In this document: positions 114 through 55,347 of the stretch, one piece after another | How the letters are laid out: each line of letters starts with the position of its first letter | How positions within the stretch are numbered: position 1 is the first letter of the stretch | Program-made: the position numbers and the translations under genes | The notes under the pieces: model-generated | The model's database searches: none | The model's input: the letters and a program-made list of their open reading frames with translations, nothing else | Told to the model about the DNA's origin: nothing | Source: an uncultured Gammaproteobacteria bacterium | GTDB taxonomy: Bacteria; Patescibacteriota; Patescibacteriia; Magasanikbacterales; UBA922 | Direction of reading: 5' to 3' | Assembly: GCA_964566225.1 (NCBI GenBank) | Contig: CAZMHV010000004.1 | Location: 64,248 to 128,247, forward strand | Length of the DNA: 64,000 nt

Positions 114-131
114 ACCCGAGCGAGGAGGAGA

Positions 132-9673: not shown

Positions 9674-9692
9674 ACAAAAAATATTTTTAATT

Positions 9693-12832: not shown

Positions 12833-12849
12833 CTTTTTCAAGATAAAAT

Positions 12850-28892: not shown

Positions 28893-29034
28893 ACAAAAGA
28901 TTATTTTGTCTCTAGTATACATCATTTTTAATATTTTGAAAATTTTTAGAGGAATATTTTTTTACATTGACATTTTTTGGTTTTTGTGGTAGGGTATATT
29001 CATACATTTCCTACATGTAGGATTAAAAAATACT

Positions 29035-29280
29035 ATGATAAAAAAGAATGTAACTGAAGAATTTTATGGCACAACCACCCTTGGTGAAAAGGGCCAGGTG
29101 GTAATTCCAGCCGAAGCCAGAGAGGCCATGAAGCTCAAAAAGGGTGAAAAACTTTTGGTGTTTGGATTTGGCTGTGAAATGATTGCCTTTGCCAAGGTAT
29201 CGGACTTAAAGAAATTTGCAACTCACTTATCAAAACAATTGGAAAGTTTGCAAACTATTATTCAAAAAAATAGCAGATAA
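29035..29280 (+). CDS. AbrB/MazE/SpoVT-family DNA-binding protein.
   Basis: Swapped-hairpin motif TLGEKGQVVIPAEAREAM. Length is 81 aa. Confidence 0.7.
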   Translation: MIKKNVTEEFYGTTTLGEKGQVVIPAEAREAMKLKKGEKLLVFGFGCEMIAFAKVSDLKKFATHLSKQLESLQTIIQKNSR

Positions 29281-29295
29281 CTAAAAATATTTTGT

Positions 29296-31128: not shown

Positions 31129-31131
31129 TGT

Positions 31132-31848
31132 ATGTCTCTGATTAACATGAAAAATTTAAAAAAGGATTATACCACCGGTGACGTGGTAACTCCTGTATTG
31201 CATGGGCTCTCTTTTCAAATAGAACGGGGAGAGTTTGTTGCTATCATGGGTCCATCTGGATCTGGAAAGTCAACACTCATGCATATTTTAAGTTTTCTCG
31301 ACTCTCCAACTTCTGGTGAATATATTTTTGACGGCGAACCTGTTTCGAGTTTAACCGATGAAGAACTTGCCAAAATGCGTAACGAAAGAATTGGATTTGT
31401 GTTTCAAGCCTTTCATTTGTTGCCTCGAACGTCTGTAGAAGAAAATGTTGGGTTGCCACTGCTCTATAGTAAAAAGAAAATGGATAAAAAAGCTGTGGTC
31501 AATAAAGCCATTAGCGAAGTTGGTCTTGAACATCGTCGAGATCATTTGTCCAATCAACTTTCGGGTGGAGAAAAACAGCGTGTGGCCATTGCTCGCGCAA
31601 TTGTGAATAACCCCGATATTATTTTTGCCGACGAACCAACCGGAAATTTGGACTCAAAATCTGGAAATCAAATTCTCAAAATTTTGCAAGACTTAAATGC
31701 ACAGGGGCATACCATTATTATGGTTACCCACGAACAAGATACGGCTAACCACGCCAAACGTATTTTGCGTGTGCGTGATGGATATCTCGAAAAAGACGAA
31801 AAAGTCGCCACTCGAAGATTTGCCGGAGATGGTGAACTGAAAAAATAA
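31132..31848 (+). CDS. ABC transporter ATP-binding protein (MacB/LolD/FtsE-type).
   Basis: Walker [10 protein letters not shown], signature [14 protein letters not shown], and Walker B IIFADEPT. Confidence 0.9.
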
Positions 31849-31849
31849 C

Positions 31850-33076
31850 ATGACAGTCCCTGATCTTCTGAAACTTTCCATGCATAACTTGAAGACCAAC
31901 AAACGTCGGTCTATTTTGACTATGCTGGGACTCATTATTGGTATTCTTTCGGTGATTTTGGTGATGTCTGTGGGTGCTGGTGCGCAGAGTCTTATTACCA
32001 ACCAATTTCAAAAACAGGGGACAGATAAAATTGGTGTGCTCGCAGGGGCAAGTGATCCCAAAGGTCCTCCGGCATCAGCCATGGGAGTCATTATTACCAC
32101 ACTTACCGAAGAAGATGCTTTGGCATTGCTCAATAAAAAAAATGTAACCCATTCTGTATCTGTGAATGCCTATATTTCGGGCAACGATGTCTTGCAGTGG
32201 AAAGATGTGGATAGAAATGTAACCTTTACAGGGACCATGGCAAGTTATGCGGCATTTGAAAAGACAGAACTTGCTGGTGGCAGATTTTTTACCGAAGGAG
32301 AAGAAGGTAATGGCGAACATGTTCTTGTGCTCGGGTCTGATATTGCTGAGACCGTGTTTGGAAATACTGATCCAGTAGGTGAGACTGTGAAACTCAAACG
32401 AGAGTCATTTAAGGTAATTGGAGTTTTGAAGCACAAAGGTTCAACTGGATTTGAAAATCCAGATAATGCTGTACTTATCCCACTCAAAACTGCCCAGAGA
32501 GATTTACTGGGGGTGAATCACATAACCTATTTACGTGTACAACTCGACAGTCCTGAGGCAGTAGATCAGTCAATGGAAGAAGTGCGTCAAACTTTACTTG
32601 AACGTCATGGTGACGAAGATTTTTCGGTTCGCAGTGTGGCTGACTTACTCGAAACCTTAACGACGGTTACCAATGTGATGAAATTTTTTTTGGTAGCGAT
32701 TGCTGGAATTTCTTTGTTTGTTGGGGGAGTTGGTATTATGAATATTATGCTTATTGCCGTAAAAGAAAAAACCCGTGAAATTGGACTGCGAAAAGCAGTC
32801 GGAGCTACCAAACAAGACATTTCGCTTCAGTTTTTGGCAGAGAGTATTTTTATTTCACTTCTTGCTGGTATCATTGGTATTATACTTGGAGTTATTTTGT
32901 CATATGGTATTGCCAAGGGAGTGCAGTTTGCTGGGTATGATTATAGTTTTATTATTTCTGCGGGTTCTATAGTTGCTGCATGTTTGGTGGCTGGGTTTAC
33001 TGGCTTGGTATTTGGTACGCTTCCTGCGCGTCGGGCAGGAGTTTTGGATCCTATTGAAGCACTTCGTTATGAATAG
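31850..33076 (+). CDS. ABC transporter permease (FtsX/MacB-type), copy 1.
   Basis: MacB periplasmic domain plus the FtsX 4-TM core. Confidence 0.8.
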   Translation: MTVPDLLKLSMHNLKTNKRRSILTMLGLIIGILSVILVMSVGAGAQSLITNQFQKQGTDKIGVLAGASDPKGPPASAMGVIITTLTEEDALALLNKKNVTHSVSVNAYISGNDVLQWKDVDRNVTFTGTMASYAAFEKTELAGGRFFTEGEEGNGEHVLVLGSDIAETVFGNTDPVGETVKLKRESFKVIGVLKHKGSTGFENPDNAVLIPLKTAQRDLLGVNHITYLRVQLDSPEAVDQSMEEVRQTLLERHGDEDFSVRSVADLLETLTTVTNVMKFFLVAIAGISLFVGGVGIMNIMLIAVKEKTREIGLRKAVGATKQDISLQFLAESIFISLLAGIIGIILGVILSYGIAKGVQFAGYDYSFIISAGSIVAACLVAGFTGLVFGTLPARRAGVLDPIEALRYE

Positions 33077-34319
33077 AATTTTGGTAAGCATGAGTTTGGC
33101 TTTTAAAACCCTCAAACACAACCTGTCGAGGAGTATTTTGACTATTGTAGGAATTACGGTTGGTATTGCTATGGTTGTCATAGTACTTTCTGCTGGTGCG
33201 GGACTCAAGGGGATTATTTTGGGTCAGATATCGAGTTTTGGTGATAATTGGATTAATGTAGAAGTAAAAATTCCTGACACGGGCAGAAATTCTCAACAAA
33301 ATAGTAGTGGACAAGCTCAAGGAGTGATTATCAAATCACTGGTTGAGTCTGATATGCAAGCGATCACCAAAGTTTCAAATATTAAAAATGCTTATGCTGG
33401 TATTACCAGTCAGGCTGTAATTTCTTACTCTGACCAAACATTTCACCCAATTATTTTTGGGGTGAGTCCAAGTTATCCTTTTATCAATAAGTCAAAAGTC
33501 GATACGGGCAGATTTTTTTCTGATGAAGATAATAAGTCTGTTTCACAAGTTGTGGTACTTGGAAATGAAATTTCACACAATCTTTTTGGTGACAACGATC
33601 CTGTTGGAAAATTTGTTCGTGTTGATAAAGAAAGTTATGAGGTCATTGGTGTTATGGAGAAACTGGGAAGTACTGGGTTTATGAATATGGATGGAATGAT
33701 TTATATTCCTTTGAAGACCGTACAGAAAAAAATTATGGCTGTAGACCATGTAAGTTTTATTGTTGCTGAAGCCGTAGATAAAACAAAGTCACTTGATACT
33801 TCAGAAGAAATCCGCAGTGTTCTTCGTGACAGACACAAAATTACAAATCCAGACAAAGATGATTTTGCTGTCACGACACAAGATGAGGCTGTGGAGGTGG
33901 TGGGTACAATTGTAGCAGGTATAAGTGGACTACTTATTGCACTTTCTTGTATTTCACTCCTTGTTGGAGGAGTAGGAATTATGAATGTTATGTATGTATC
34001 TGTGGCAGAGAGAACTTTTGAAATTGGGCTTCGTAAATCTGCAGGAGCAACAACTTCTGATATTTTGTGGCAATTTTTGGTCGAAGCAATTGTGTTGACT
34101 TTGTTTGGTGGAGTACTTGGTGTGGGCATTGGTGTTATTATTTCATTTTTGATTTCGGTAATTGCCAATGCGTTAAACTTTTCGTGGGAATTTGAAATTT
34201 CATTATTTTCAATATTTTTGAGTACAGGGTTTTCAACATTTGTGGGAATACTTTTTGGATTGTATCCTGCCAAAAAAGCAGCATCACTTGATCCAATGGT
34301 TGCAATTCGACAAGAGTAA
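33069..34319 (+). CDS. ABC transporter permease (FtsX/MacB-type), copy 2.
   Basis: Its ATG overlaps the upstream stop (ATGAATAG). Same fold as copy 1. Confidence 0.8.
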   Translation: MNRILVSMSLAFKTLKHNLSRSILTIVGITVGIAMVVIVLSAGAGLKGIILGQISSFGDNWINVEVKIPDTGRNSQQNSSGQAQGVIIKSLVESDMQAITKVSNIKNAYAGITSQAVISYSDQTFHPIIFGVSPSYPFINKSKVDTGRFFSDEDNKSVSQVVVLGNEISHNLFGDNDPVGKFVRVDKESYEVIGVMEKLGSTGFMNMDGMIYIPLKTVQKKIMAVDHVSFIVAEAVDKTKSLDTSEEIRSVLRDRHKITNPDKDDFAVTTQDEAVEVVGTIVAGISGLLIALSCISLLVGGVGIMNVMYVSVAERTFEIGLRKSAGATTSDILWQFLVEAIVLTLFGGVLGVGIGVIISFLISVIANALNFSWEFEISLFSIFLSTGFSTFVGILFGLYPAKKAASLDPMVAIRQE

Positions 34320-34400
34320 AATGACGAAAAAATTTTTTTGTGATATACTATTCCTAATATTAAAATATATTAGGAATTTTTATTATTTATTTTTCATGCT

Positions 34401-35924
34401 ATGCCAAAAAGCGCAGCTTCTAAACCACGCTCGCGTGCAAAATCGTCAACTCGACGTGTTTCATCTGCGCGGGCATCTTCTTCGAGAACTCTTACTAGAG
34501 TAAAAACAAATGTTATTACTGATACAAAAATTCTCATGGCAACCATAGCGCTTTTGTTGTCTACGGGACTTTCACTTATTGCTGTACCGGCAGCCCCTGG
34601 TCAGATGCAGTTGGCCGCTGCAGCAAAATGTGGGGTGAACAAAGTTACCTATGGACGAGTTTGTGCTGCCAAAATGTATACGGGTGCACGGGTAGTCTGT
34701 CATGATGGAAGTTTTGCTGATGTTGGCGCGGGGCAGTGTTTGTCTGTCGCTGCTATTGCACAGCTGGGAAATGTTGTTTGTCAAAACAAATGCTCTGATG
34801 CTGTGGTGGTAGCTCCACAACCAAGACTTACGGTGCGTACCAATGTAGATACACCACTTGGAACCAATTTAGTTTTGGGAAGTGTAGATACCATGGTTGC
34901 TAAATTTGACTTGATCGCCTCTAATGTTGAAGATATTAATTTGCGAGATTTTGCGGTGAGTTTTCATTTGCCAGAACATTTGGCAACCGGAACTCTTCGT
35001 AATATCAGACTGTTTGATGGAGACGTTCAAGTAAGTGAAAATATTGCACATTTAGGTGGAGCTCCTACTACTTCAACTTTTCATACGGCAGTATTTCACA
35101 ATATAAATTTACGCTTATTGAGATCTCAAGTAAAAACATTGATTGTAAAAGCAGACATGAGTACGTACGAAAATAATGGATTTTTGAGTGGAGTCCGTTT
35201 TCAACCAGCTATTTTAAATACTGACTATGATCAAATGGCACCTGGAGTGCAACTTGCTGTCAATGCAGAAGGCTTGGTAAGTGGGAGCGTACTCCAATCA
35301 CGAGATATTGTGTTTATTGCAAATGCAGGTACGGTTGCTTCAGGAAGCAAAAGTGAACAATCTTTGTTAAGTACATTGTTACCACGTACTTCAGGATATG
35401 TTGGAGCCAATCAATTTGTAGTATATAGAACAAAGCTTGTAGTTATGTGGGCAGCAGATACACCAACTGGGTTTTCTGCACCAGCATCGGGACAAGTGAT
35501 TGGAAAATTTATTGTGAATAATTTTGCAAATAATGGTAACTATAATGCTACCGTACGGGCAACGAATGTAAACTTATCAAGCAATCGTATTGTTGCTGCA
35601 CAGCCAAGGACTCTCAATATTTATCGTGATTCACTTCAAAGTGTTATTTTGGCAACCACACAGTTTCAAGGAGTTGTCTCGGGAAATAGTGGGTTTGAAG
35701 ATCGTTCATTTGGTGATGTTGAAATTTCAAGCGGTGCCAATAAAACTTTTTTTGTAACATTTGATACTATAGATGCCTTAGCAAATCAAGCTCTTTTGGT
35801 CAATGTTCCTTGGTCTGTAAATGAAGTAAAATATTTTGGTCTATTGTGGAGTGATGGTGTTGTTCACGACATTGTTGCCTCAGACAATGGTCTCCCTCTG
35901 GCTCCGAAGACATTGGTTTACTAA
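34401..35924 (+). CDS. Hypothetical secreted or surface protein with a basic N-terminus and a single TM anchor.
   Basis: ORF only. K/R/S-rich N-terminus followed by a hydrophobic helix. Confidence 0.45.
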   Translation: MPKSAASKPRSRAKSSTRRVSSARASSSRTLTRVKTNVITDTKILMATIALLLSTGLSLIAVPAAPGQMQLAAAAKCGVNKVTYGRVCAAKMYTGARVVCHDGSFADVGAGQCLSVAAIAQLGNVVCQNKCSDAVVVAPQPRLTVRTNVDTPLGTNLVLGSVDTMVAKFDLIASNVEDINLRDFAVSFHLPEHLATGTLRNIRLFDGDVQVSENIAHLGGAPTTSTFHTAVFHNINLRLLRSQVKTLIVKADMSTYENNGFLSGVRFQPAILNTDYDQMAPGVQLAVNAEGLVSGSVLQSRDIVFIANAGTVASGSKSEQSLLSTLLPRTSGYVGANQFVVYRTKLVVMWAADTPTGFSAPASGQVIGKFIVNNFANNGNYNATVRATNVNLSSNRIVAAQPRTLNIYRDSLQSVILATTQFQGVVSGNSGFEDRSFGDVEISSGANKTFFVTFDTIDALANQALLVNVPWSVNEVKYFGLLWSDGVVHDIVASDNGLPLAPKTLVY

Positions 35925-35934
35925 ATAGTTTTAA

Positions 35935-35967
35935 AAAGAGTCCCTTGACCAGGGGCTCTTTTTTTGT
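35935..35967 (+). terminator. Rho-independent terminator (AGAGTCCC-TTGACCA-GGGGCTCTTTTTTTG).
   Basis: 8-bp stem plus T7. It is followed by a TATACT -10 box for the nth-like gene. Confidence 0.65.
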
Positions 35968-35984
35968 GCTATACTAGTATGCAT

Positions 35985-36623
35985 ATGAATACGCAACAAC
36001 AAAAAAAGCGAGCACACATTGTGCTCAAAGAGCTCAAAAAATTATTTCCAATAGCGGAAACGATTTTGCGTTCCTCAAACGATGTGGAGCTTTTGATTGC
36101 GGTTATGTTATCGGCCCAAACCACTGATGTGCAGGTGAACAAAGTAACAGCAAAGGTATTTGCCAAATATAAGACGCTTGAGGACTATGTAAATGCCAAT
36201 GCAGGGGAGTTTGAACAAGATATTTCTTCGGTGAATTTTTATAGGGCCAAAGCCAAAAATATTTTGGCTATGACAAAGATGCTCCACCAAAAACATGGTG
36301 GGCAGGTGCCTTCTACTCTGGAAGAATTGATTGAACTGCCCGGCGTTGGGCGCAAGACAGCAAACGTTGTGTTAGGATTTATTTATGGGGTAGTGGAGGG
36401 GATTGCTGTAGATACACACGTGACTCGTTTAGCGCACAAGTGGGGTCTCACAAATTCGACTGACCCAAAAAAAATTGAGCAGGATCTTATGCAGATACTG
36501 CCCAAAAAAGAATGGCATGATTTTACCCTTCGGGTGATTGATTATGGTCGCAAGTATTCACCAGCGCGGAAGGTGGGGGATGATGGTGATCCGATTTCGG
36601 TGAAGCTAAAAAAAGTGGAGTAA
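35985..36623 (+). CDS. nth: Endonuclease III-like HhH-GPD DNA glycosylase. No C-terminal Fe-S Cys cluster was seen.
   Basis: HhH motif LPGVGRKTANVVL and catalytic-region D. Start choice (35979 or 35985) is uncertain. Confidence 0.7.
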   Translation: MNTQQQKKRAHIVLKELKKLFPIAETILRSSNDVELLIAVMLSAQTTDVQVNKVTAKVFAKYKTLEDYVNANAGEFEQDISSVNFYRAKAKNILAMTKMLHQKHGGQVPSTLEELIELPGVGRKTANVVLGFIYGVVEGIAVDTHVTRLAHKWGLTNSTDPKKIEQDLMQILPKKEWHDFTLRVIDYGRKYSPARKVGDDGDPISVKLKKVE

Positions 36624-36632
36624 TGGTGTGTG

Positions 36633-37616
36633 TTAACGGAGTTCTTCAAAATATTTTTTGGCAAGAGCCACGTTTACGGGTCGGTATCGAATCGTTTCAA
36701 GCAGGTGTGGATTTACTCCTGCTCTTTTTATTTGTTGTTTAATTTGATCTTTTGAAAAGGATTGTAATTCACTGTCAGTATTAGCAGGAAGAATAATATC
36801 TGTTTTGGCGAGCGAATCTGCCAAAAAGAGAAGTCCTACTTCTCGGGCCATCCCAGTACCTTGGTATTTTTGTGCAAGTGTTTGTACTTCTTGTGTACAC
36901 AAATCTGTTTTTAAAAATGGAAAACCATATCCACCATCAAATTGTTTTGACAGGTTGCGTACAATTCCAAGTTCGTAGTGAAGTTCGGCACACTGTGCAA
37001 TGTATTCAATTTGGTGTGGAGTGAGACCGAGTTTTTCTTGGAGCCATTTTTGAAAAAGTTCTCCTCGGATAATGGCACCTGAGCTGGCTTCGTGACGATT
37101 GAAGCTGTGAAATGTACCATCGGGTTGGTGCCAAGTTCTGCGAACAGCAAATTTTCCAAAGTCGTGAAGGGGAATAGATATTTGCATTAAATCATGTTTG
37201 GATCTGCCATCAATGGTTTCGTTTTGAAGATCAGTAAGAATATGTTCTTGGTGCCAGGTAAGCAGGTAGTTTGGTACTTTGGTACGAAAAAATTCTTCAA
37301 ATTTTTTTGAATGCGTGAGAATACCCCATTGATGATATTGGGGTGCATGTTCCTGTGGATCATCAATATTTGTATAAAAAGATTCAATTTCTGGCGTGTG
37401 TTCTCCATTTCCCAAATAGTACAAAATAATACCTTTGGCAAATTCAGGAAAGTGAATCCACAAAAGTTGTAAAATATCGGCTGTTTCAAATTCTTGCCCA
37501 CTTTTTTTTATTTCAATGTGTGGATCAAATTCATTTGTACCTTGGAGGGGTGGTGTTTCAGTTGAATTGTTATTTGAATAAATTTCAAAAAGTTCAGGAC
37601 TGATTGTATGTTCCAT
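36633..37616 (-). CDS. HD-domain-like hypothetical protein.
   Basis: LHDFGK motif. ORF of 327 aa. Confidence 0.45.
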   Translation of the reverse strand: MEHTISPELFEIYSNNNSTETPPLQGTNEFDPHIEIKKSGQEFETADILQLLWIHFPEFAKGIILYYLGNGEHTPEIESFYTNIDDPQEHAPQYHQWGILTHSKKFEEFFRTKVPNYLLTWHQEHILTDLQNETIDGRSKHDLMQISIPLHDFGKFAVRRTWHQPDGTFHSFNRHEASSGAIIRGELFQKWLQEKLGLTPHQIEYIAQCAELHYELGIVRNLSKQFDGGYGFPFLKTDLCTQEVQTLAQKYQGTGMAREVGLLFLADSLAKTDIILPANTDSELQSFSKDQIKQQIKRAGVNPHLLETIRYRPVNVALAKKYFEELR

Positions 37617-37805
37617 AAAAAATATTCAAAAGCGAATATGTATATGATACAGGGAAGTAGGGGAGGGAGGCAAGTTCTACATCACTACAAAAAATATTTT
37701 AAGAGAAAAGTCTCCAGAGAGAGTTGAAAACTTTTGTGAAAAAATAATTTTGTAGTGGTGTGGAACGCGGAGGAGGGGAGGTCCTCCGCTATCCTCCTAG
37801 TTGGG

Positions 37806-38204
37806 TTATCGTCGACCATTCGGCGACGGGACGATTCGTCCCTTGGCCAGGTCGGTGAGATCAGGCTGATTTGAGGCGGTCACCTCGAACCAACCACGCT
37901 TCTTTGCTTGACGAGCTGTGTTCGGCGAGATGCCGAACATTTTCATCAGCATGGAAGTGGATTGCCCTTGCTCGGCAGTGGAAAGTCGGACGAATCCGAC
38001 GTTTCCCCTGCGTTGAAAAATGCCGGGGCGATGGTACTCCAGGTGGAAGTACCCTCGCTCCTGGGCTCGCCAGAGTGTGACTCGAGATGCCTTGAGCCCA
38101 CACTCGTGGGCTTTCTGGCAGAGCTCCTTCAGGGGCAAGGCCTTTGCCTCGTCCGAGAGGAAGACCTTCATTTCCTTGATCTCGAAAAAGGCATTTGGCT
38201 CCAT
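37806..38204 (-). CDS. High-GC small protein with two excisionase/AlpA-like (MerR-superfamily HTH_17-like) helix-turn-helix motifs.
   Basis: LKELCQKAHECGLKASRVTLWRAQERGYF and SMLMKMFGISPNTARQAKKRGWF. An AAGGAAA RBS lies upstream of ATG 38204. A nested palindrome lies just upstream. Confidence 0.4.
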   Translation of the reverse strand: MEPNAFFEIKEMKVFLSDEAKALPLKELCQKAHECGLKASRVTLWRAQERGYFHLEYHRPGIFQRRGNVGFVRLSTAEQGQSTSMLMKMFGISPNTARQAKKRGWFEVTASNQPDLTDLAKGRIVPSPNGRR

Positions 38205-38384
38205 CTGGGAGTTTCCTTTTGTAATGTGGGCGGAATTACCCTTCACAGATTTCAAGTGATTGAAATATCTCAAGGGTAATTTCAAATAATGATATCTTCT
38301 CAACTTTTTCCTCCTTTTGACAAAGAAAAAAGTAATCGAATGGGCGAAGCGGATGTGCGGTCCGTTCTTCGCCCTGGCGTGTGC

Positions 38385-38642
38385 TTACACATAGTCAGTG
38401 TCGGGGTCACTTACCGACAAGACTTTGGTCTCAGCGTCCAGCTGTTGAGCAATGGTGCCCCAGCGGGGTCGCATTGCTCTTCCTCTGAAAAAGATCATGC
38501 CCACACGTACTGTGAGCCGATCTCTACATCTTTCGCATTTCACCACGAAGTCGTGGTTTATTGCGAAAGGTGGGACTTCCCACTTTGAGAACCCACAGCT
38601 GCAGTGGGTCTCGGTATGAGCCTGTTCCCACCAGAGGCTCAT
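38385..38642 (-). CDS. Possible small zinc-ribbon protein (HCSCGF…CERCRD).
   Basis: Four Cys in a CxC…CxxC arrangement. No clear RBS and the region is highly structured. Confidence 0.25.
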   Translation of the reverse strand: MSLWWEQAHTETHCSCGFSKWEVPPFAINHDFVVKCERCRDRLTVRVGMIFFRGRAMRPRWGTIAQQLDAETKVLSVSDPDTDYV

Positions 38643-39157
38643 ATTCTTGATTTGTTTCTGGAGTCGACGTCGTTGTCGACGTCTATACTGCCAAGAACAA
38701 AATAAGTCTAATTGGAGTGCGTATCGGAGGATGTCTGATGAGATCCTCCAAATCCACTCCGGTGGTCTGGCTTTTTGGGTTGTGACTTTCACCAAAAAGC
38801 GTTTTTTTGTAGGCGCCCCCCCTGGCCTAGTCCAGGGTCCTTCCGGGGGGGAAAGGAACCCTGACGTGCCGATGTTGAAGAAAGTTTCTTCTTCGACAAC
38901 GGCTACCCCCGACCCGTCTGGAGAGGTCTCCGATGTTGGGTGGTAGTAAGCCAACCCATCTGTAAGCCCCCACCTCCAGGGCCTATCAAGGGTACCGTTT
39001 CGGCACCCCTTGTGCCCAAGGTCTGGGGAGTGTCCACACCCCCCCGCACAATATCGGGGGGTTGTGATGACCTCTCTTTTTTGTGTGGTAGCCAGTTTGG
39101 AGGAAGTAGAGGTCTCCAGGTTGACCTCCTCTTCTTCTTGTTGTTGGAGCTTAAGTA

Positions 39158-39451
39158 TCATCCTTCTTTCCACTTTCCCTCTCCAGGGGAAAGGCCAAAT
39201 ACCTCCTCCCACTCAGGACGGAGGTTTGCGGGGGACTCCGCTGATGAGGCCTGTGAAATGAGGAACAACATCGCCTCCTTCCGAGGCGACTTCTCGGGTT
39301 CCGCGGCGATAAGCTGGCTTCCGATCACCTTGAGGGGGACGTACCCCCTTCGGTGGTAGTAGACAGCCACTTCCTTCACCACGCGAACGAAGTGGGGGGA
39401 AGAGATCCCTGCAGGAATCTCAATAATCGCCGCAATGAGAGTCTCGATCAT
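39158..39451 (-). CDS. Small hypothetical protein (about 98 aa).
   Basis: A GAGGAG RBS lies 6-7 nt upstream of ATG 39451. Confidence 0.3.
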   Translation of the reverse strand: MIETLIAAIIEIPAGISSPHFVRVVKEVAVYYHRRGYVPLKVIGSQLIAAEPEKSPRKEAMLFLISQASSAESPANLRPEWEEVFGLSPGEGKWKEG

Positions 39452-39624
39452 GGACTTTCTCCTCGCGCTGCCCCTGGCGCTGTTAGGGTTGATGGGATGG
39501 GGCATTATTGTTGCCATTACTCTGGTAAAAATAATGTTCCATCTCATCTTGTTTTCTTCCCGGATTTGCTTATCGCATTCACTGCCCTTGTATAAAGACA
39601 GCAGAGCGACAAGCAATTTTCAAT

Positions 39625-39742
39625 ACGCACGTCTTGGTAAACCTGCGCTTGCCAAAGAAAATAATATTTTTATTCACTTTGGCAATATTCAATTGTAAGG
39701 ATCTTCACTCTCTACACCACATTCATTAGGCTGCTGTAACAT
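39625..39742 (+). repeat. 118-bp direct repeat, copy 1. It is identical to 46009-46126 and followed by about 100 bp of diverged similarity.
   Basis: Exact identity read in the sequence (ACGCACGTCTTGGTAAACCTGCGCTTGCCAAAG…GCTGCTGTAACAT). Confidence 0.9.
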
Positions 39743-40070
39743 CCTTCATCCAATTTTTCACTTTGCTTTTGTGAAACCAAAGTTACTTTTGCATTTGGGA
39801 CTTTCTTGTTGTAGTAGCGACTTGTTAAATTTGATCTGCATCAAATGTTGAAAGTTGTTGCTACATAATCTTGACAGGAATCTTTTTTTCTGTTAAAGTG
39901 TAAGTAACATGATAGTGTTCGTAGATAACTACGGATAACCTACCTTCGCAGGATAGTTCCGACTCAGTCGGGACTATTTTTTTATTTATCCACAGAAAAT
40001 GCCCTCACGGGACGTCCAACTTTAACTTTTCTTCAGGTACTTTGTGTTATGCTCACTTTCGGTGGACTCA

Positions 40071-40144
40071 AGGGCCCGTAGTTTAATGGTAGAACACTAT
40101 CATGCGAAGGTAGGGGCACGGGTTCGATTCCCGTCGGGTCCACC
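40071..40144 (+). tRNA. tRNA-Arg, anticodon GCG, with encoded CCA.
   Basis: Hand-folded cloverleaf. Acceptor GGGCCCG/CGGGUCC, D-arm GUUU…GAAC with GG, anticodon stem CUAUC/GGUAG with loop AUGCGAA, T-arm ACGGG-UUCGAUU-CCCGU, and a 3' ACCA. Confidence 0.85.
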
Positions 40145-40457
40145 ACCCAAAGCAATCTTGTAAACACAAGGTTGTTTTTGTTTAGAAAGAATTTCTCCCC
40201 TTCACAAACTTCAACGAATTGAAATTTCTGCAGGGTTGGCGAGTGAGTGCTTCTCTCTCGCCGACCGGTGCGTTTGGCTTCTCGCCGTGGAGGATACTGC
40301 TTCCTCTTGGCTCACCACTTTGTTCTTTTGGAACATGCAGGTGACTCATACCTTGATTTTCAGCATAGGATTTTGTGCTGAGTGAAACCCGTGAGTGGCA
40401 GCTTGTCCCGAGACCTTGTCGGTCTCTGAGTGGGATGTTACCAGGTTTCTGTGTGGT

Positions 40458-41420
40458 TTAGCCGCGGTCGATCTCAGCCTCGGGCAGGATGTGCCCGGCG
40501 GCTCGAAGCTCGGCCTGACGGCCGCCGTTGGTGAACCAATGGGGTGCGTCCTTGGTTACGCTATCCTGGCGGTACGGGATGGTTCCGTCCACCAGGGCGT
40601 GCGTGGCCCAGTACTCCCGGCTCTGGTTGCCGCGCTCGTTCGGGTCGCCCGGGAAGGGCTCCCCAATATGGCCGACGTAGGCCTTGTGCAGGGAGTAGCT
40701 GTCTCCCCTGCGTCGAAGAACGATGCTGAGATACTGGCACGTTTCGGCCTTACGGCCGCGGACGAACCGACCCCAGTTGTGCCCACCGAGATGGGCGTAA
40801 AACACTTCATCGTGGTCTCGAGTCTTCACGCACGCGGTTCGGCCGAAGCCACGCCGTCCAGAGTCGAACTCGCGCAGGACGTAGTCGGCGCCCATCCCTG
40901 GGGCCACTTCGTCGATTTCGATGACATTGACACAATCGACCATGAAGTCGTATTGCTTCAGTGTCATCGAGTCTTGGATTCGGGGAGCGATGTAGACCTG
41001 TTGGCCAGTGGCAGTCTGAACTACCTTCGGCCTGCGGGTCATCGACATCAGCCACTCTTCGGGGGTAGACCCCTGAAGCCATGGCCGGTCGAAGAACTTC
41101 TTCTTTGCCACCTCTGGGTTGGGAAACTGCTCAGTCGCCTCGATCAGGAGGAGGAACTCTCCCCAGCTGATTGTGTGTGTGTCGGAGTGATCCTGGCCAC
41201 GGGCCAAGATCTGGATCTTTTGGGATCCCTTCACTCCTTGGAAGAATTCGCCCCAGTGTCGAATCTCCCGGTTGAGGGGCCGCTCACCCGGGATGACCAC
41301 GCGTTGAAACATTTGGTTCTTTTGATTGAACCGATAGTTTTCTCCGAAGTTGGTGAAGTCTACGACCACGTCATGGGTTCTACAGAAGAAGTACACTTTC
41401 ATCTGGAGATTCTTGAACAT
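40458..41420 (-). CDS. Hypothetical protein (320 aa). It is the last gene of the AAA+/vWA cassette.
   Basis: Diverse composition. The overlapping plus-strand 372-aa ORF looks antisense. No confident motif. Confidence 0.5.
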   Translation of the reverse strand: MFKNLQMKVYFFCRTHDVVVDFTNFGENYRFNQKNQMFQRVVIPGERPLNREIRHWGEFFQGVKGSQKIQILARGQDHSDTHTISWGEFLLLIEATEQFPNPEVAKKKFFDRPWLQGSTPEEWLMSMTRRPKVVQTATGQQVYIAPRIQDSMTLKQYDFMVDCVNVIEIDEVAPGMGADYVLREFDSGRRGFGRTACVKTRDHDEVFYAHLGGHNWGRFVRGRKAETCQYLSIVLRRRGDSYSLHKAYVGHIGEPFPGDPNERGNQSREYWATHALVDGTIPYRQDSVTKDAPHWFTNGGRQAELRAAGHILPEAEIDRG

Positions 41421-41573
41421 CTTTTTTTCTCGACATGCCGGGGAACTGCCGGTGCAGTCGAAGCGTGCGTCTCAATTGCATTGCTTCGATCTCTTTTGCA
41501 AAAAAATTTGTAACAGAGATCGAAGGGGAAGGTGCATTTCCCTTCGAGTGCTTTGGCTCCTCATAGGAGCAGG

Positions 41574-42242
41574 TTAGAGGCGCGTGGTCACCTTCTCGAC
41601 GCGGTACCAGACGTACCGATCGAAACGGAAACCTTGGCCTCCACCCCCGCGAAACTCGATTTTCGCGTGGTCATTCTCCTTGACTGCCTCGCTCCGCAGG
41701 AGAGGGAGTTCCTTGGCGGAGAGGCGCTCGAAGCCTGCCTCGGGCACTATGGCCACGAGAGCTTCGAAGCCTCCATTCTGGAACTCCTGCTCCGTCTGCT
41801 CGGCGTTCGGAATGTCGCGGTGCGTGACCACCACATCCGAGCCGAATAGTCGAGCAAGCTCGGCAGTCTGCCGAGTGGTCGGGGCGAACCGGGAGAGCCA
41901 CATGATGCGTTTGTGGCCTCCCGAAACCGGCGATACCTCATCGAATTTCTTGCGGATCTCGAGGATCCGGTCGAAACCGAGAAAGGTGCTCCGTTCGTGC
42001 GACATCATTGGCCAGAGGGGAAAAACCCCCTTTCGGCAAAGTCCGTCGAGGATGCTGGTGGGTGCCACCAGCACGATCTCATCGAACTTGCCGGATTGTA
42101 TCCGAGCCATGATGTCGTTCACCCCATCCGGGCTGAACGGCCGATCGTCAATCGTGACGTCGACCTCTCCCATAATCCTTTGAAGCTCCTGCATCTTCCC
42201 TTCATCGGGGTGATGGCGTGAGAGCCAGAGGATTTTCTTCAT
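41574..42242 (-). CDS. Hypothetical protein (222 aa) made of two tandem homologous halves of about 105 aa (KKILWLSRHHP… and KRIMWLSRFAPT…).
   Basis: Internal duplication seen in the translation. The overlapping plus-strand ORF is S/R/P-rich and looks antisense. Confidence 0.5.
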   Translation of the reverse strand: MKKILWLSRHHPDEGKMQELQRIMGEVDVTIDDRPFSPDGVNDIMARIQSGKFDEIVLVAPTSILDGLCRKGVFPLWPMMSHERSTFLGFDRILEIRKKFDEVSPVSGGHKRIMWLSRFAPTTRQTAELARLFGSDVVVTHRDIPNAEQTEQEFQNGGFEALVAIVPEAGFERLSAKELPLLRSEAVKENDHAKIEFRGGGGQGFRFDRYVWYRVEKVTTRL

Positions 42243-43094
42243 AGCAGGGACCCTTTCGTAAATGTTTTCTCACCACACTAACCAAAATTTTTTTTGATCA
42301 AAGCGGTGAGGGGCTAACTTTTACATCGTTGCGCAACGACGTTTGCTAGCCCACCCGAGTGCATTCCATTTTGTCTTTTCCCTGAAAAAAAGACTTTAGC
42401 TACTCACCTCATTTTACTGAGGCTTTCAGGCTCTTGAAATTTCCTGCAAGGAAGTGCAGGGGGTGATTTTTCCGTTTGGAACCCATTCAAGAGTGCAGAA
42501 CTCGGCGCGTTGCCGAAAATTTGAACTTTCTTTGGTCTGCTGAAGAAAGTCGAGGTCGGATGGAGGTTTACCATCTTTTTCCCACCGAGGTAGGTAACTC
42601 TTTACGAGAAGGACACGACCATGCCCTTCAGGTAGGGTTTGCTTTGTTTGATAAAGCTTGCCGGGATTTTCACCCGCATCAGTGTTGGTCTTACACAGTT
42701 TCTGAAGATAACAGTAGCCCTGTCCAACAACGTGTATAATTTCCCCCAATTCGCGAGAGGGTAAGCCATACAAACTTAAGTAGACTGTCACGCCTACCAG
42801 ATGCCGAACCTTGTCACCCGGTTCGGTAGGATGGGATTTATTTTCTGTCGGTTCCCTTCCCGACTTTTAGCTTGGTGGATTCATTTTATTAGCCTCCTTG
42901 TAAGTGTTTGGGACCACCATTCTTTTTCCAAAAATTTTTTAGAAAAAAGATGCTGGGGGGGAAGTATTGTGCTTTCTTCCCCGTGTCAGTGTCCGAGTGC
43001 TTATCGGACGGGTCGCTCAGTCTCACGCGAGAAAGAGCAGAAAATTCCGTTTTATTTTTACAAGGTCTCGGGATGACCTTGTTCCTGGTTGAGT

Positions 43095-44504
43095 TTAGAA
43101 TCTGTCGATACCGACACCGCCCGTCGAACGGGCGAACTCGACCAATGATTTGTTCGCCACCTCCATGGCGAAGCCGTGGACCCGGGTGCCCGGGATTTCT
43201 GACTTCTTGAGAGAGGAAACGGACTTGTCATCGTCGGTCAGGAGAACGATCTCCGGCCGGTAAAGAGCTTCACCAGCCTTGATTTTTTCGTCCATGAATT
43301 TGTGGGCCGCGCGGACCGAGGCAGGAATGTCCGTGCCACCGCCCGTGAAGTTGCTCGCCGCGAATTTCTTGATAAGTTCGCGAGCTTCCGCAGGAGTAGC
43401 CGCGTGCATGACCTTCCCTAAGGAAGTGTCGAACACGCTAATCCACACTTCCGCGTCTCCGGTCAGGACTGCCTTGAGGCGGTTCATCACCACCCCGCTG
43501 GCCTTCCAATGCCTCTTGCCCTTCATCGACCCGGAGCCGTCGAGAAGGATGAAGATCGCCTGCCTTTTCTCCACCGTAGTGACTCGCTCCCGGACCTGGA
43601 GCTGACCACTCACCGCTTGGTAGAGAAACAAAGTGTGGTTTTGCTGCCGCGTCGCCCAGTCAGTGTGGCTCACACGGTTCAGCTCGCCCATGTGCTTGAT
43701 CGGTCGACGGCGAGTTTCCTCGCCTGCCAGATTCACTTCCTGCTTCTTCTGCTTGCGCGTCTGAAACGGGGTGAACTGATCCATCTGGCGGGAGATATCG
43801 AGCATCACCCGACGGTCGCATCCCGCCACGAGGTCCTCGGCCACCTGCAGCTTATTGAGCTGTTGGTGACCTGAACTCTGGCCATCAGTCTCAATCTCAT
43901 GATTCGCCCCGTCGGGGTCCATCATGTCGAGCTCTTCCTTGGAGAGACTTTCGACCATGTCCATGATCTCGTGAAGGGATTCGGCGACCCCCTCTGTTCG
44001 TTCTGATTCTGCGAAGATAGGGAGCGGCTCACCCCCACCTTCGCTAGCCGCGCCCTGCCCGCCCTTTTGCTGGCTCAGGAGCTTCAATAGCCCCATTGCC
44101 TGTTCGAGTGGGCTTGCGCCGGGGAACTTTGACAAGTCCACCGTCTGCAAGAAGTCGCAGACGTTCTGATGGTACCTCATCGAGTTCTCGGCGTGGGCGG
44201 TCACGGCCTCTGCACGATTGGTTGTACAGGTTTCATCCCCAAAAAGGCCTCGCACCTTGGTGGGGATCTGCCAGTTGCCATACGAGTCGGGAGCCGGCAG
44301 CTGCTCCTCAATTCGTCGCGTCACTTCGTCTCGGTAGCTCGACGGAGGGTTGACGCGTCCCCCCGCCGCCAGATTTGTGAGATCGGCCACAAGGTCTGGG
44401 GCGAACCCCTTGAGGCCAATCCTCCCCGCCATCTCCTTCATCTCCTCCTTTGACGGAGGAATGTAGGCAGCGGGCGGAGAAGTGCGGAACGTAAACTGGC
44501 TCAT
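43095..44504 (-). CDS. vWA-domain protein, CobT-like, with an acidic linker and a C-terminal MIDAS vWA domain.
   Basis: MIDAS motifs ILLDGSGSMKG, GGGTDI and LLTDDD. It is a paralogue of the 132..1820 protein. Confidence 0.7.
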   Translation of the reverse strand: MSQFTFRTSPPAAYIPPSKEEMKEMAGRIGLKGFAPDLVADLTNLAAGGRVNPPSSYRDEVTRRIEEQLPAPDSYGNWQIPTKVRGLFGDETCTTNRAEAVTAHAENSMRYHQNVCDFLQTVDLSKFPGASPLEQAMGLLKLLSQQKGGQGAASEGGGEPLPIFAESERTEGVAESLHEIMDMVESLSKEELDMMDPDGANHEIETDGQSSGHQQLNKLQVAEDLVAGCDRRVMLDISRQMDQFTPFQTRKQKKQEVNLAGEETRRRPIKHMGELNRVSHTDWATRQQNHTLFLYQAVSGQLQVRERVTTVEKRQAIFILLDGSGSMKGKRHWKASGVVMNRLKAVLTGDAEVWISVFDTSLGKVMHAATPAEARELIKKFAASNFTGGGTDIPASVRAAHKFMDEKIKAGEALYRPEIVLLTDDDKSVSSLKKSEIPGTRVHGFAMEVANKSLVEFARSTGGVGIDRF

Positions 44505-44738
44505 CTTGGTCTCCTCCCGCTTGCGCGGATTTTCTAGTTGAGTTTCTCGAAGCGTTTGCTTCGACCTTTATTTCAAACTTTTTTGTTTGATATACAGGTC
44601 GAAGGGTGAGCGTTGTGCATACTCACCTTCCAGTGCTTGCTCCTCGTAGGAACTTGGTTGATTTTACCAACCGTCAATGCCCATAGAGCCGGGATCAGCT
44701 TTCCAGGATTCAAGCCTTACCTGGAATGGCTTTCTTTT

Positions 44739-45840
44739 CTACAGGCGGGTGTGCTTGAGGCTGAGCTTCTGAGCCTCGGCCGACTTCTGGGAAGCAGCCT
44801 CCCGGAGCTGCTTGCGCTTTTCCGTGAGACCATCCGTGACCTTGAGATTGGCCACCTTGTCCTGGAAGGAGAGGAGCCGCAAAGCCGCCTGGTTGCACTT
44901 GACCGGACTCTGCGTCCGATCAGCCGCCTCGAGGTCAGAGAGCAAGCTGTTCAGCTCGCCCTCAGCCTCAACCAGCAACACCTCGGCCGTCGCCCGCTCG
45001 CTCGCCTTGTCGAGCTCGGTTTTCAGGTTCTCGGCCAAAGCCTCGAACCCATCGACGAACTTGAGGTCAAGGAGATCGACCTTCTCGACCTTGGCCGAAC
45101 CGCGCAGCGCTGCAGAGGTCTTGACGACTCCAAGCGCGTGCACGGCCGACCGCGGCGAGATGGGCCGCCCCTGCTCGGCGAGCTTGCCGAGCATCTCGGC
45201 GAGCACCGAGCTCATCCCGTTGAGGTCGGCTCCCGGCAAGCGGGGCGCGACCTTCACGAACAGCTCGCTGTAATCGGCCGCCTTATAGGACGGCCATTTC
45301 ACATTGAGTTGAATCGGGAATCGCTCGATCAGGGCGTGCGCAGCGGGGCCGAGCTCGCTGATTTCCGCTGGGTCTTTGTTGGTGAGGGCGATGATGACCT
45401 TCGTCTTCATCGCGAACACCTGTGACCCCTTTCGGAGCTTGCGGGCGGTCAGCGTGTCCTTGAGCGCGAGGAGAACCGACGCCGGAGCGTCAAAGAGCTC
45501 CTCGAACACCGCGTAGGGTCGCGCGAGGAAGCTCAGCTCCGGGAAGTACCGGAGCACCTTCTCGGTCTCGAGCGCCCGGAAGTCGAGGCCGCCCCAGAGG
45601 GTAGCCTCGTCCATTCCCTCCCCGAAGCTCTGAACGTGGACCTCGTTATCGAGGTCCGTGACGATCTCGGCCAGAGCGGTCTCTATCATCTCGGACTTCC
45701 CGTGCCCCCCGGGTCCCCAGAGGAGCACGTTTTTGCCCGACGTGATTGCCAGAGCAAGGACCCGGGCCAGGTCCTCACACTTGATGAAATCCCGCTCGAG
45801 GCGAGACTTCAACTTGTCGAAGAGATTAGTAACCACGCAA
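44739..45840 (-). CDS. MoxR/CobS-like AAA+ ATPase (AAA_5 type).
   Basis: Walker A LLWGPGGHGKS, Walker B/sensor VIIALTN, and arginine-finger region. GTG start 45840 with a GGAGG RBS 6 nt upstream. The longer ATG-initiated extension is probably not translated. Confidence 0.7.
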
Positions 45841-46008
45841 ACCTCCGTAGCGCGATTGTTGCGCCTTGGATTGGGCTTGCCCTGGGGAGGGCAAAGCACG
45901 TTTGTGTTTCTCCTCCCGCAGAGCAAAGCCCTGGTTTGGGTCCCCATTTCTATTTTTTTTCAAAAATAGTCAGGGAACCCAAACAGTTGCGTAATGACCT
46001 AATATTAA

Positions 46009-46126
46009 ACGCACGTCTTGGTAAACCTGCGCTTGCCAAAGAAAATAATATTTTTATTCACTTTGGCAATATTCAATTGTAAGGATCTTCACTCTCTACA
46101 CCACATTCATTAGGCTGCTGTAACAT
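46009..46126 (+). repeat. 118-bp direct repeat, copy 2 (identical to 39625-39742).
   Basis: Exact identity. Confidence 0.9.
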
Positions 46127-46906
46127 TTTTTACTCAATTTTTCTTTGGAGTCTTGTGAGGCTCAAAATACTTGTGAGTTCAAAACTTTCTTGTTGTAGTA
46201 GCGACTGCCTTTCCCTCTATACAATCTTGCGACTGTTTAAAGAGAAGGCGCACTCGGTACTACTCTCGTTCTGAGGCGAGTGTAGACTGACCGCGAGGGA
46301 GTTGCTGCTCGACTTTCGTCAAGGGCATCTATCAACCTCCGCCGGTTCTCTTAGTCCGGTCGGATGACCGGATCAAGAGCAATATCTTACCCGGTCATTC
46401 GACCGGGCAAGGGTTCAGAATTGAAAATTTCTTTCACCGATAGGAGTCTCTCTCCTTCACATTGGTCAAAGAAATTAGTTCATTGTAATGGTTTGGGGAC
46501 TCAACCTTTTTGCACCCTGTCTCGCTCAACTCTCTCTCTTGAGGGCAAAGCAGGTATTGTTTAAAAAGGGAATCGTGCAAACCGTTTAGTCCTAGACCCT
46601 TCCCAAAGGCAAGCATCGCTTTGGTACTTTTGATCAAGGTCTAAACGTTTTGCGCGAAAGTGTAAAAAACGCTCTTTCTGGTGAGAGAGCGTTTGAGTTT
46701 GGTAACTCTATCTGGGGCTCTCTCTTTCCTTTGATAGTTCAAGTGTTTGAGTTGTGGTTACCTGTTCTTGGTCTTTCAGCGTAACGAGCTAGTATAACAT
46801 AAAATCACAAATATGTCAATACTGAACCATGCATATACAAAATATATATATTAAATTTATCTAAATTTAGCTAAATATATAAAAACTCAATATGTAAAAT
46901 AACCAC

Positions 46907-46935
46907 TTGACATATTAATTCAAATATGGTATAAT
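46907..46935 (+). promoter_or_regulatory. Consensus sigma70-type promoter (TTGACA, 17 bp, TATAAT) for the TrmB-like gene.
   Basis: Perfect hexamers with a 17-bp spacer, 24 nt upstream of ATG 46959. Confidence 0.5.
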
Positions 46936-46958
46936 ACATGTACAATAAGCCAAAAAAT

Positions 46959-47738
46959 ATGATTGACCAAAACTTAAAAAACCTGCTGGTTGAGGCAGGA
47001 TTAGAATCAAGTTCTACAGAAATTTACCTTATTTTAGCCCAAAAAGGTGAATTAACCGTGTCTGAACTTATCAAAGACACATCGCTTTCTCGCACCACTG
47101 TTCACAGTGCACTCATGGATTTACTAGTCAAAGAGCTGGTTTTATACCGCAAAGAGGGGAGAAATGCCTACTATAAACCAGCACACCCCAGTGGATTAAT
47201 GCGCCTTTTGGAAGAAAAAAAGCGTCAACAAAGCCAATTTGAAGCGAGTTTCCAAGAGGGCCTTGGTTCCTTGGCCGGTATGTTTAACCTGGCCAACAAC
47301 CGTCCTGGGGTGCGATTTTATGAGGGGAAAGAGGGGGTTATTGAAGCGTATGAAGAAATTTTGACGCTCGGTGCGCCTATTGAAAGTATTGAAGACAAGG
47401 GAGAAATGGCTGAATTTATTCCTGAGTATTTTCCCAAGTTTATTCAAAAAAGAATTCAAAAGAAAATATTCAACAAGGTGGTGGTTCCTTCGAGTAATAC
47501 CATCAATGTAAACAGCCCAGAAGAATTTCGTGAAACGAGAAGTATTGATGTTGCACAGTTTCCTTTTTCTATGGATATAAAAATATGTGGAAACACTGTT
47601 CTTTTGGTAACTTTAAAACAAAAACAGGCCATTGCCATTCGCATAGATGACCCGCTTATTGCAGAAAATTTCAAAATTTTATTTCAGTTTTTGTGGAACT
47701 CTGCCGCAATATCTCATGCTCCTGCTTCTGTCTCTTGA
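46959..47738 (+). CDS. TrmB-family transcriptional regulator.
   Basis: N-terminal winged HTH (TEIYLILAQKGELTVSELIKDTSLSRTTVHSALMDLLVKELV). An alternative ATG lies at 46938. Confidence 0.6.
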   Translation: MIDQNLKNLLVEAGLESSSTEIYLILAQKGELTVSELIKDTSLSRTTVHSALMDLLVKELVLYRKEGRNAYYKPAHPSGLMRLLEEKKRQQSQFEASFQEGLGSLAGMFNLANNRPGVRFYEGKEGVIEAYEEILTLGAPIESIEDKGEMAEFIPEYFPKFIQKRIQKKIFNKVVVPSSNTINVNSPEEFRETRSIDVAQFPFSMDIKICGNTVLLVTLKQKQAIAIRIDDPLIAENFKILFQFLWNSAAISHAPASVS

Positions 47739-50536: not shown

Positions 50537-50643
50537 AAAAAAGACAAAAGTATACTGTCTAGTATATGAGAAAAATGGTGCACTGTCAAAGTAAAATAAA
50601 AAGATTCATTGTGATAATGAATCTTTTTAAAATATTTTTTTTC

Positions 50644-52104: not shown

Positions 52105-52207
52105 AGAAGTGTTTTAAGCAGGCTCTAAAATAACGTATTTTTAAGGTTTTGTCAACTTTGTTACCATATAAAAACAAAAAACCCAGTTTGGGGTTTTTTG
52201 TATATGT

Positions 52208-54223: not shown

Positions 54224-54391
54224 GTTTTTTCTATTATACAGTATCTTTTACTCAATTGACAAAATAGAGAATTATTTTGAATAAAAAAAATCCTCTTGGA
54301 GAGGGTGAGTTTGTAGAGTAGGCGACGGGTTGAGAGGGTGCCCGAGAACGCCGAAGCGTCACATCAGAGCACCCTCTTGCCATCTTGGGAG

Positions 54392-55096: not shown

Positions 55097-55347
55097 TGGG
55101 GATCTCCTGGGGGGGTGCGGGGTTATATATACCGCATGTAGGGGCAAAATTGCCCAGTGTAGAGGGGGATTTCCTCTTTCAAAAGTAAGAAATATCTTTC
55201 TTTTGAAACAAAAAATACCCAAAATAATGAACAGGAGAGAATATACCAAATAGGACGTTTTGTCAAGGGGGTTATTACACAAATAAAAAAAGAGTCCTGT
55301 TGCAAGGACTTTTTGTTTTTATGAGTTGGATATTTGGGGAGTCTACT

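Follow-up and report, generated by a model that had tools for sequence, protein, structure and literature searches.

A duplicated intergenic module with a 118-nt identical tract in a GC-rich AAA+/vWA island of a Magasanikbacteria-like CPR bacterium

Paralogous upstream regions can be kept alike by gene conversion (concerted evolution), for example at rrn or tuf loci, and Correia/CREE, REP/BIME and ERIC elements are intergenic repeats that carry promoters or terminators. Here, we describe a pair of direct repeats from a Magasanikbacteria-like CPR bacterium, located in a 64-kb window (the whole stretch of DNA that was analysed, 64,000 nucleotides long), and compare it with these systems as well as with the attL/attR islands of tRNA and tmRNA genes and with integron cassette arrays. 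Related loci are cited throughout by our locus numbers.

As in gene-converted promoter/operator duplicates, our locus has two co-oriented 5' regions in which a sharply bounded identical tract lies next to older homology, and similarity is higher within genomes than between them (as for a pair in L021 and a triplet in L026); unlike those duplicates, the genes that would be served here are unrelated rather than paralogous. With Correia/CREE, REP/BIME and ERIC elements the copies share the character of short, non-coding, intergenic modules with palindromes that may hold promoters and act as recombination substrates, but they differ in having neither terminal inverted repeats nor target duplications, in numbering two within one island, and in being genome-specific. 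Similarities with attL/attR islands are the host-like direct repeats around compositionally foreign genes, the adjacent stable-RNA locus as a variable hot spot and the tRNA gene inside the bracket, whereas here no integrase was found, the repeat is not a tRNA end, the island continues past one repeat, an outer third copy is missing, and the repeat is long (198 nt) and mosaic. Lastly, integron arrays likewise combine co-oriented variable genes, repeated hairpin-containing separators and an adjacent fixed platform, but our locus has no IntI and no attC-type core sites, its modules sit 5' of genes and look like promoters with leaders, and the platform beside it holds a structured RNA, trmB and a 940-aa protein (without Pfam match) rather than IntI/attI. 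In itself the repeat is most likely of an ordinary kind, an intergenic module that was duplicated and of which one tract was recently converted.

Anatomy and setting of the repeat pair

The features of the repeat are as follows (coordinates are those of the window).

39625..39822, no strand assigned: repeat copy 1, 198 nt, within the GC-rich island and 5' of minus-strand genes for 97, 258 and 165 aa
46009..46206, no strand assigned: repeat copy 2, 198 nt, between the minus-strand AAA+/vWA operon and a structured non-coding locus
39625..39742, no strand assigned: identical tract of copy 1, 118 nt, partner 46009-46126, a putative recent gene-conversion tract
39743..39799, no strand assigned: diverged segment, 57 nt, 32/57 identical to 46127-46183, ungapped
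39800..39822, no strand assigned: 23-mer ACTTTCTTGTTGTAGTAGCGACT, identical at 46184-46206
39649..39685, no strand assigned: perfect inverted repeat TTGCCAAAG-N19-CTTTGGCAA with 9-bp arms, twin at 46033-46069, operator-like
39658..39685, minus strand: sigma-70-like site TTGCCA-16-TATTTT facing the island genes, twin at 46042-46069, a weak match (9/12)

The two copies lie in direct orientation with a start-to-start offset of 6384 nt, and their cores are identical at all 118 positions (39625-39742 and 46009-46126), exactly as a sequence-only reading of the window had proposed. That reading also gave the repeat a diverged extension of about 100 bp, which proved real as ungapped homology but shorter, at 80 nt, such that homology reaches 39822 and 46206 and totals 198 nt at 87% identity (173/198). 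All 25 mismatches between the copies fall within positions 119-175, where identity drops to 56% (32/57), and the final 23 nt match fully again. The first of the shared blocks listed for the extension, TCAATTTTTC in both copies, did not hold: the real block is CAATTTTTC, and the base before it differs (C in copy 1, T in copy 2). Both outer boundaries are abrupt, with no relation between the left flanks (ending in AGCAATTTTCAAT before copy 1 and in CCTAATATTAA before copy 2) or between the right flanks (beginning with TGTTAAATTT after copy 1 and with GCCTTTCCCT after copy 2). The 118-nt pair is by a wide margin the longest repeat in the 64-kb window, where it occurs in two copies, and a chance or low-complexity match is ruled out by the 118/118 identity, as chance cannot give such an exact repeat in 64 kb.

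The repeat copies have a host-like composition: their GC content is 36-37%, compared with 39% in the host and 53-57% in the adjoining island genes. The earlier description of the copies as non-coding and moderately AT-rich is borne out by this value and by the only open reading frames that touch them (39435-39698 and 45636-46082), which run antisense to real genes and were left uncalled by independent gene calling. We also rejected a small minus-strand ORF (SRYYNKKV...NVV*), which is without a start codon in copy 1 and carries an in-frame stop in copy 2, and for which the 100% nucleotide identity covers synonymous positions too. The template/variable repeat pair of a diversity-generating retroelement (DGR) was likewise set aside, since the 25 mismatches span all four bases in both directions rather than the adenines of one copy; a reverse transcriptase was absent among the protein families found.

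The window has a GC content of ~40% and contains GC-rich islands at 1-6000, about 37750-46008 and 54000-55300, of which the middle one, with the repeats, consists exclusively of minus-strand genes.

37806..39451, minus strand: genes downstream of copy 1, for 97 aa (39158-39451), 258 aa (38385-39161) and 165 aa (37806-38303, a double-HTH protein)
40458..45836, minus strand: genes downstream of copy 2, for AAA+ bpMoxR, vWA, 121 aa, 222 aa and 320 aa
44739-45836, minus strand: AAA+ bpMoxR, probable GTG start with a GGAGG ribosome-binding site
43095-44504, minus strand: vWA, an island gene downstream of copy 2
45837..46008, minus strand: 5' leader of the AAA+ gene, hairpin-rich, 72-83% identical in L019, L025 and L026
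46938..47738, plus strand: TrmB-family regulator, the syntenic anchor for finding related loci

Copy 1 begins an AT-rich stretch, from 39625 to about 40190 (39% GC), that separates the two GC-rich gene blocks and holds, in order, copy 1, a small-RNA-like unit, tRNA-Arg(GCG) and a terminator. At the left edge of the island, between a host 327-aa gene and the 165-aa island gene, lies an imperfect long inverted repeat (37674-37766, ~70% over 93 nt, CTACATCACTACAAAA...TTTTGTAGTGGTGTGG). Elsewhere in the window we observed a second, distant vWA gene (132-1820) and a SAM riboswitch (S-box) at 16707-16822 on the minus strand (44.5 against the Rfam gathering threshold of 44.4 bits), upstream of minus-strand genes and close to the S-adenosylhomocysteine hydrolase gene at 17987-19399.

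Control-like content and neighbouring RNAs

All genes downstream of both copies are on the minus strand and co-oriented, and because of this island layout each copy is the first feature upstream, in the minus-strand sense, of an island gene string. Copy 1 ends 174 nt upstream of the start of the 97-aa gene, and copy 2 is upstream of the probable AAA+ GTG start by 173 nt and of the longest ATG by 62 nt. In both copies the operator-like 9-bp inverted repeat overlaps the sigma-70-like hexamers of the predicted promoter, which is placed 5' of, and co-oriented with, the genes it would serve. The promoter-like site is a weak match (9/12), and the region is not enriched in such matches over shuffled sequence (8 found, 5.7 expected). 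The TTGCCAAAG-N19-CTTTGGCAA pairing was seen only in the two copies among the window and related loci checked, which hold no further palindrome that would form a regulon. The position, the palindrome and a parallel with modules in L026 and L019 (described below) suggest a 5' promoter/operator-leader role; of the three readings offered previously for the repeat, the duplicated promoter/leader module is the best supported, given its 5' position, the inverted repeat with hexamers and the habit of related islands.

On its far side, copy 2 adjoins a conserved non-coding region, here called X, and a second transcription unit, Y.

46236..46650, minus strand (tentative): non-coding region X, conserved and structured, adjoining copy 2 and upstream of trmB
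46660..46819, minus strand: unit Y, promoter TTGACA-17-TATACT (46819-46791), hairpin and U-run terminator at about 46690-46660

Homologues of X occur in L005 (5752-5968), L021 (1368-1582), L022 (885-1102), L026 (8836-9095) and L019 (9392-9560), and contain the ultra-conserved blocks GCGCACTCGGTACTA, CGACTTTCGTCAA and GGTTCAGAATTGAAAATTTCTTTCACCGATAGGA. The consensus fold has 41 pairs on the minus strand, 23 of them with compensatory double changes (-22.3 kcal/mol), and 30 pairs on the plus strand (-9.6); X is co-oriented with the downstream island genes in 6/6 genomes and is most likely transcribed on the minus strand. An Rfam search over the repeat and its neighbours, X included, returned no known RNA family. 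Strong divergent promoters are kept in the six genomes, TTGACA-17-TATACT leftward and TTGACA-17-TATAAT for trmB. The leftward one would drive unit Y, which is ~125 nt long, contains AAAGGAAAGAGAGAGCC and could be a small RNA in its own right; alternatively, it could be an attenuator that precedes X.

This neighbourhood raises the alternative that the repeat is a 3'-terminal or trailing module of X on the minus strand, with copy 1 a partly decayed RNA-gene fragment left in the island. Such a reading would fit the probable minus-strand transcription of X, which leads into copy 2, as well as the conserved blocks of the repeat, which are split by a stem of variable length, and a closing helix (GCUGCUGUAAC/GUUGUAGUAGC) predicted in both copies and in L005. 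We nevertheless regard it as very unlikely, as both strands of the repeat fold no better than shuffles (z +0.3 to -1.8), the closing helix has 3 of its 11 pairs disrupted in L005, the counterpart of the 23-mer makes a different, local hairpin in L021 and L022, and Rfam gave no match.

The other repeat copy is followed by a unit of host-like composition on the plus strand.

39871..39985, plus strand: small-RNA-like unit, promoter TTGACA-17-TAAAGT, intrinsic terminator 39950-39980
40072..40145, plus strand: tRNA-Arg (anticodon GCG), followed by a terminator hairpin

The small-RNA-like unit is antisense to positions 5-33 of tRNA-Arg and then to positions 25-43 (18/19), anticodon loop included, and the second antisense part overlaps the 5' arm of the terminator that ends the unit. 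For the two RNAs a duplex of -44.2 kcal/mol is predicted, versus -30.8 +/- 4.5 for shuffles (1/500 as low). The unit could be a leader that senses tRNA, or else part of a tRNA gene that was inverted and has decayed. The tRNA-Arg(GCG) may be the main tRNA for CGU/CGC codons. We rejected the idea that it compensates for the codon usage of the GC-rich island, as its CGT/CGC codons are favoured by the host (57% of Arg codons) and not by the island (30%). In L021 (2170-2275, minus strand) and L022 (1923-1992, minus strand) a tRNA-like gene lies between the divergent promoters and trmB, a place where the window has none; it gives a weak Rfam tRNA match (32.6 bits), is uncalled by ARAGORN, and has a T-arm and 3' trailer similar to those of the window tRNA-Arg.

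Related loci and the age of the pair

Relatives of the locus (L019/L020, L021, L022 and L026) were reached via TrmB homologues, and the 23-mer itself was found in 1 other genome among 185,579 species representatives (GTDB), at the syntenic site only. This genome, L005, is a Candidatus Magasanikbacteria MAG (MFQB01000022) in which the 23-mer is 100% conserved and again at the edge of GC-rich DNA, with structured region X, the divergent promoters and trmB downstream. It matches the repeat over the right-hand two-thirds, at 80% identity for 57 nt and at 26/26 thereafter, with a 14-nt hairpin in place of the 57-nt diverged segment; the left 60 nt of the repeat, palindrome included, are not conserved there. 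A small CTCTGTAATACAGAG-type hairpin, homologous to the 23-mer, stands ahead of the structured RNA in L021, in L022 and at a second L005 site. Among 12 metagenome loci, 11 were unrelated and shared only a 20-mer, and the other, L015, is the same sequence as L005 (a Rifle MAG); L018 shares a 19-21-nt seed only. Viral contigs searched with the 23-mer, the 37-nt palindrome and a 19-mer block held nothing related.

L019 carries a single contiguous island beside trmB, in which AAA+ is 75% and vWA 73% identical to the window proteins, and in which the other counterparts are a 355-aa protein for the 320-aa one (44%), 225 aa for 222 aa, and 143 aa for 165 aa (37%), the last being the orthologue (L019_143) of the product of 37806-38303. 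One degenerate copy of the repeat is present in L019, with traces at the homologous place in L026, and the internal spacer of L019 has no second copy. Because the L019 island is contiguous and has one copy, the two GC-rich blocks of the window appear to be parts of one island and copy 2 the ancestral copy; the collinear synteny from the homologues of copy 2 in L005, L019 and L026 into the structured RNA and trmB likewise places copy 2 at what is probably the ancestral position.

In L021 the homologues of 39566-39620 and 40206-40263 are separated by just 35 nt, so the window holds ~585 extra nt comprising copy 1, the small-RNA-like unit, tRNA-Arg and the terminator. L021 also possesses its own 22-nt direct repeat at both positions homologous to copies 1 and 2 (score 32; null maximum 23), from which it follows that the pair at these two positions is old and that copies within a genome are more alike than copies between genomes. 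Together with the 56% identity of the 57-nt segment, this pair in L021 implies that the window pair is old and only its 118-nt tract recent, a combination that points to gene conversion between the copies. The mosaic of identical, 56% and again identical sequence does not fit a single recent duplication, and crossing over between two att or homologous segments that had diverged does not produce it either. Perfect identity of the core had been taken as a sign of recent duplication or gene conversion; conversion is the part we retain, for the 118-nt tract, while a recent duplication conflicts with the 56% segment and the L021 pair.

Repeated modules are also seen in other AAA+/vWA islands. GC-rich (53-70%) islands with the conserved AAA+ (bpMoxR)/vWA pair were found in CPR genomes of ~35-45% GC (L019, L025, L026 and L027); their AAA+ protein keeps 62-75% identity from one CPR class to another and is always GC-rich relative to the host, gene order and content vary between genomes, and no mobility genes were recognised in them. 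Two ~100-kb IMG/VR contigs with 62% GC hold relatives at 43-54% identity. A module of 170-280 nt occurs three times in L026, preceding AAA+, the next unit and vWA (9640-9860, 11141-11420 and 12567-12860); its copies are 90-96% identical and share an invariant palindrome, TTGGCAAGTTTGCACAAACTTGCCA. Between the genes of L019 there are four copies of a different composite module (2700-2892, 3958-4130, 5579-5700 and 7209-7383), part of which shows homology with the L026 module and with window positions 44542-44640, and L025 and the first island of the window have two module copies each. Each genome has near-identical modules of its own, which suggests that 5' modules evolve in concert, or have repeatedly spread, within the islands.

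The abundance of short intergenic repeats in related islands would also suit a dispersed short repeat family (MITE/REP-like) with two copies in this window. We hold this to be highly improbable for our repeat, given its ends (ACGCACGTC... and ...GTAGCGACT), which are not inverted repeats, the lack of a target-site duplication in its flanks, the count of two copies in 64 kb, the single other genome with the 23-mer and the negative viral contigs. A plasmid or phage origin of the 6.4-kb unit was rejected, as the unit had no phage DNA match, plasmids matched the tRNA alone, and the AAA+ protein was without match in deposited phage genomes.

Synteny also bears on whether the repeat could be an assembly artefact, i.e., a collapsed repeat or mis-threaded segments. 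In favour of an artefact, the 118-nt identity exceeds the k-mer size, at which de Bruijn contigs break, and Logan contigs end at 39622 and 46038. One of these contigs extends exactly 30 nt (k-1) into copy 2, which is expected at a true repeat. Independent assembly reproduces every unique segment at 100% (the Logan contigs of SRR16481186/7 match 28006-39622, 40321-46038 and 46416-52695 without a difference), the order of AAA+ leader, repeat, X and trmB matches the synteny in L019 and L026, the region upstream of the 97-aa gene lies next to the 3' region of the 320-aa gene as in L021, and the diverged 57 nt mark two distinct copies. We therefore give an artefact hardly any weight and judge the assembly sound, with its unique segments backed by Logan and its junction pairings by synteny in relatives. 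As separate observations, contig L004 ends 2 nt before copy 1 rather than 30 nt inside it, and independent assemblies break at 40321 (where the homologous base is L022 position 1) and, in two samples, at 46416, with no within-window repeat at either place. The latter breaks probably reflect blocks of at least 31 nt shared with related organisms or other genome copies; in L021 and L022 the shared stretches at the break positions are identical or 92% identical. A search via small ORFs for contigs that bridge the Logan breaks found none on record.

Possible integration, gene capture and consequences of the identity

The sequence-only reading had also considered att-like scars of site-specific integration. 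Under this alternative a 6.4-kb circular unit, comprising the repeat, small RNA, tRNA-Arg, the 320-, 222- and 121-aa genes, vWA and AAA+, would have inserted Campbell-fashion beside the structured RNA, either site-specifically at the 23-mer hairpin or by homologous recombination through a shared segment, leaving attL/attR-type repeats that can re-excise it. The unit is indeed compact and bracketed by direct repeats, with the repeat then serving as a divergent control region, and the genes of the island all have one orientation. The site beside the structured RNA qualifies as a hot spot because the neighbouring gene differs between genomes. As a counterpoint to our preferred reading, the right edge of the repeat is the cross-species invariant 23-mer next to a conserved RNA gene, and a recombination core site would look alike. 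Among related loci, the L027 island is bracketed by palindromic repeats of 44-48 nt with 93% identity, 8006 nt apart, and L005 has a possible second, diverged hairpin copy beyond a 1-kb GC-rich insert, a weak match that 8/160 null windows equal in score.

Several defining features of such scars fail here. Searches of the island proteins against Pfam, PHROGs, NCBIfam, PADLOC and PDB sequences found no integrase or recombinase family, and the gene lists of related islands contain no recombinase. The tRNA-Arg lies outside the repeat, 250 nt from copy 1 and with no sequence in common with it, nor does the repeat form the 3' end of any tRNA or tmRNA gene. GC-rich island DNA runs 1.9 kb past copy 1, such that the repeats do not coincide with the compositional ends, and a third copy or arm at the left edge of the island (37617-37810) was not above background. 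Moreover, L019 has the orthologous AAA+/vWA genes at the same site with a single degenerate copy, and a 118-nt identity beside a 56% stretch would need a donor and a recipient that already shared sequence. We thus consider integration scars unlikely, though they deserve more credit than the other alternatives.

A more speculative possibility, which we rate as quite improbable, is that CPR bacteria have a gene-capture platform without an integrase, whose cassette boundaries the repeat marks. Compositionally foreign, GC-rich genes would then be inserted beside X and Y upstream of trmB, always facing the same way, with the genome-specific modules and the 23-mer hairpin as recombination sites, possibly for an unrecognised or RNA-assisted recombinase, and the 6.4-kb unit with tRNA-Arg would be one mobile block.

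Our favoured explanation, with about an even chance of being right, is that the copies are 5' control/junction modules that form an old pair, and that gene conversion recently made their left 118 nt identical. This explanation starts from the observed anatomy, positions, conservation and mosaic identity of the copies, which would both be paralogues of an AT-rich intergenic control/junction module of the GC-rich AAA+/vWA island. Copy 1 stands inside the island directly 5' of the distal gene string (97, 258 and 165 aa), its other side abutting the host-like unit of small RNA and tRNA-Arg(GCG) that interrupts a gene string continuous in a relative. Each copy would supply the same promoter and palindromic operator for leftward transcription, so that the two halves of the split island would be expressed and regulated alike, and selection may maintain the 23-mer, which is invariant between species. 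Promoter and operator activity of the module are predicted here from its sequence, as is the gene conversion.

As a side effect, the 118-bp identity would present a substrate for RecA, which in principle suffices for RecA-mediated deletion or for looping out of the 6.4 kb with the tRNA and the AAA+/vWA genes, and the repeat is presumably competent for recombination. Excision of this kind was the third possibility raised by the sequence-only reading, and in principle it applies to direct repeats of 118 bp in general. Such a deletion is probably counter-selected because it would take with it tRNA-Arg(GCG), the tRNA that fits the CGT/CGC codons preferred by the host.

For the biology of these organisms, the 118-bp identity predicts instability, in that 6.4 kb would be lost or looped out, including a tRNA-Arg that may be the main one for CGU/CGC codons. 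The value of the repeat lies chiefly in the handle it gives on the poorly described AAA+/vWA islands of CPR bacteria (Patescibacteria), which have 55-65% GC in genomes of about 40% GC and combine shuffled gene content and genome-specific 5' modules with a fixed place beside an unclassified structured RNA. Of greater interest than the repeat itself are its neighbours, the structured RNA X and the anti-tRNA small RNA.
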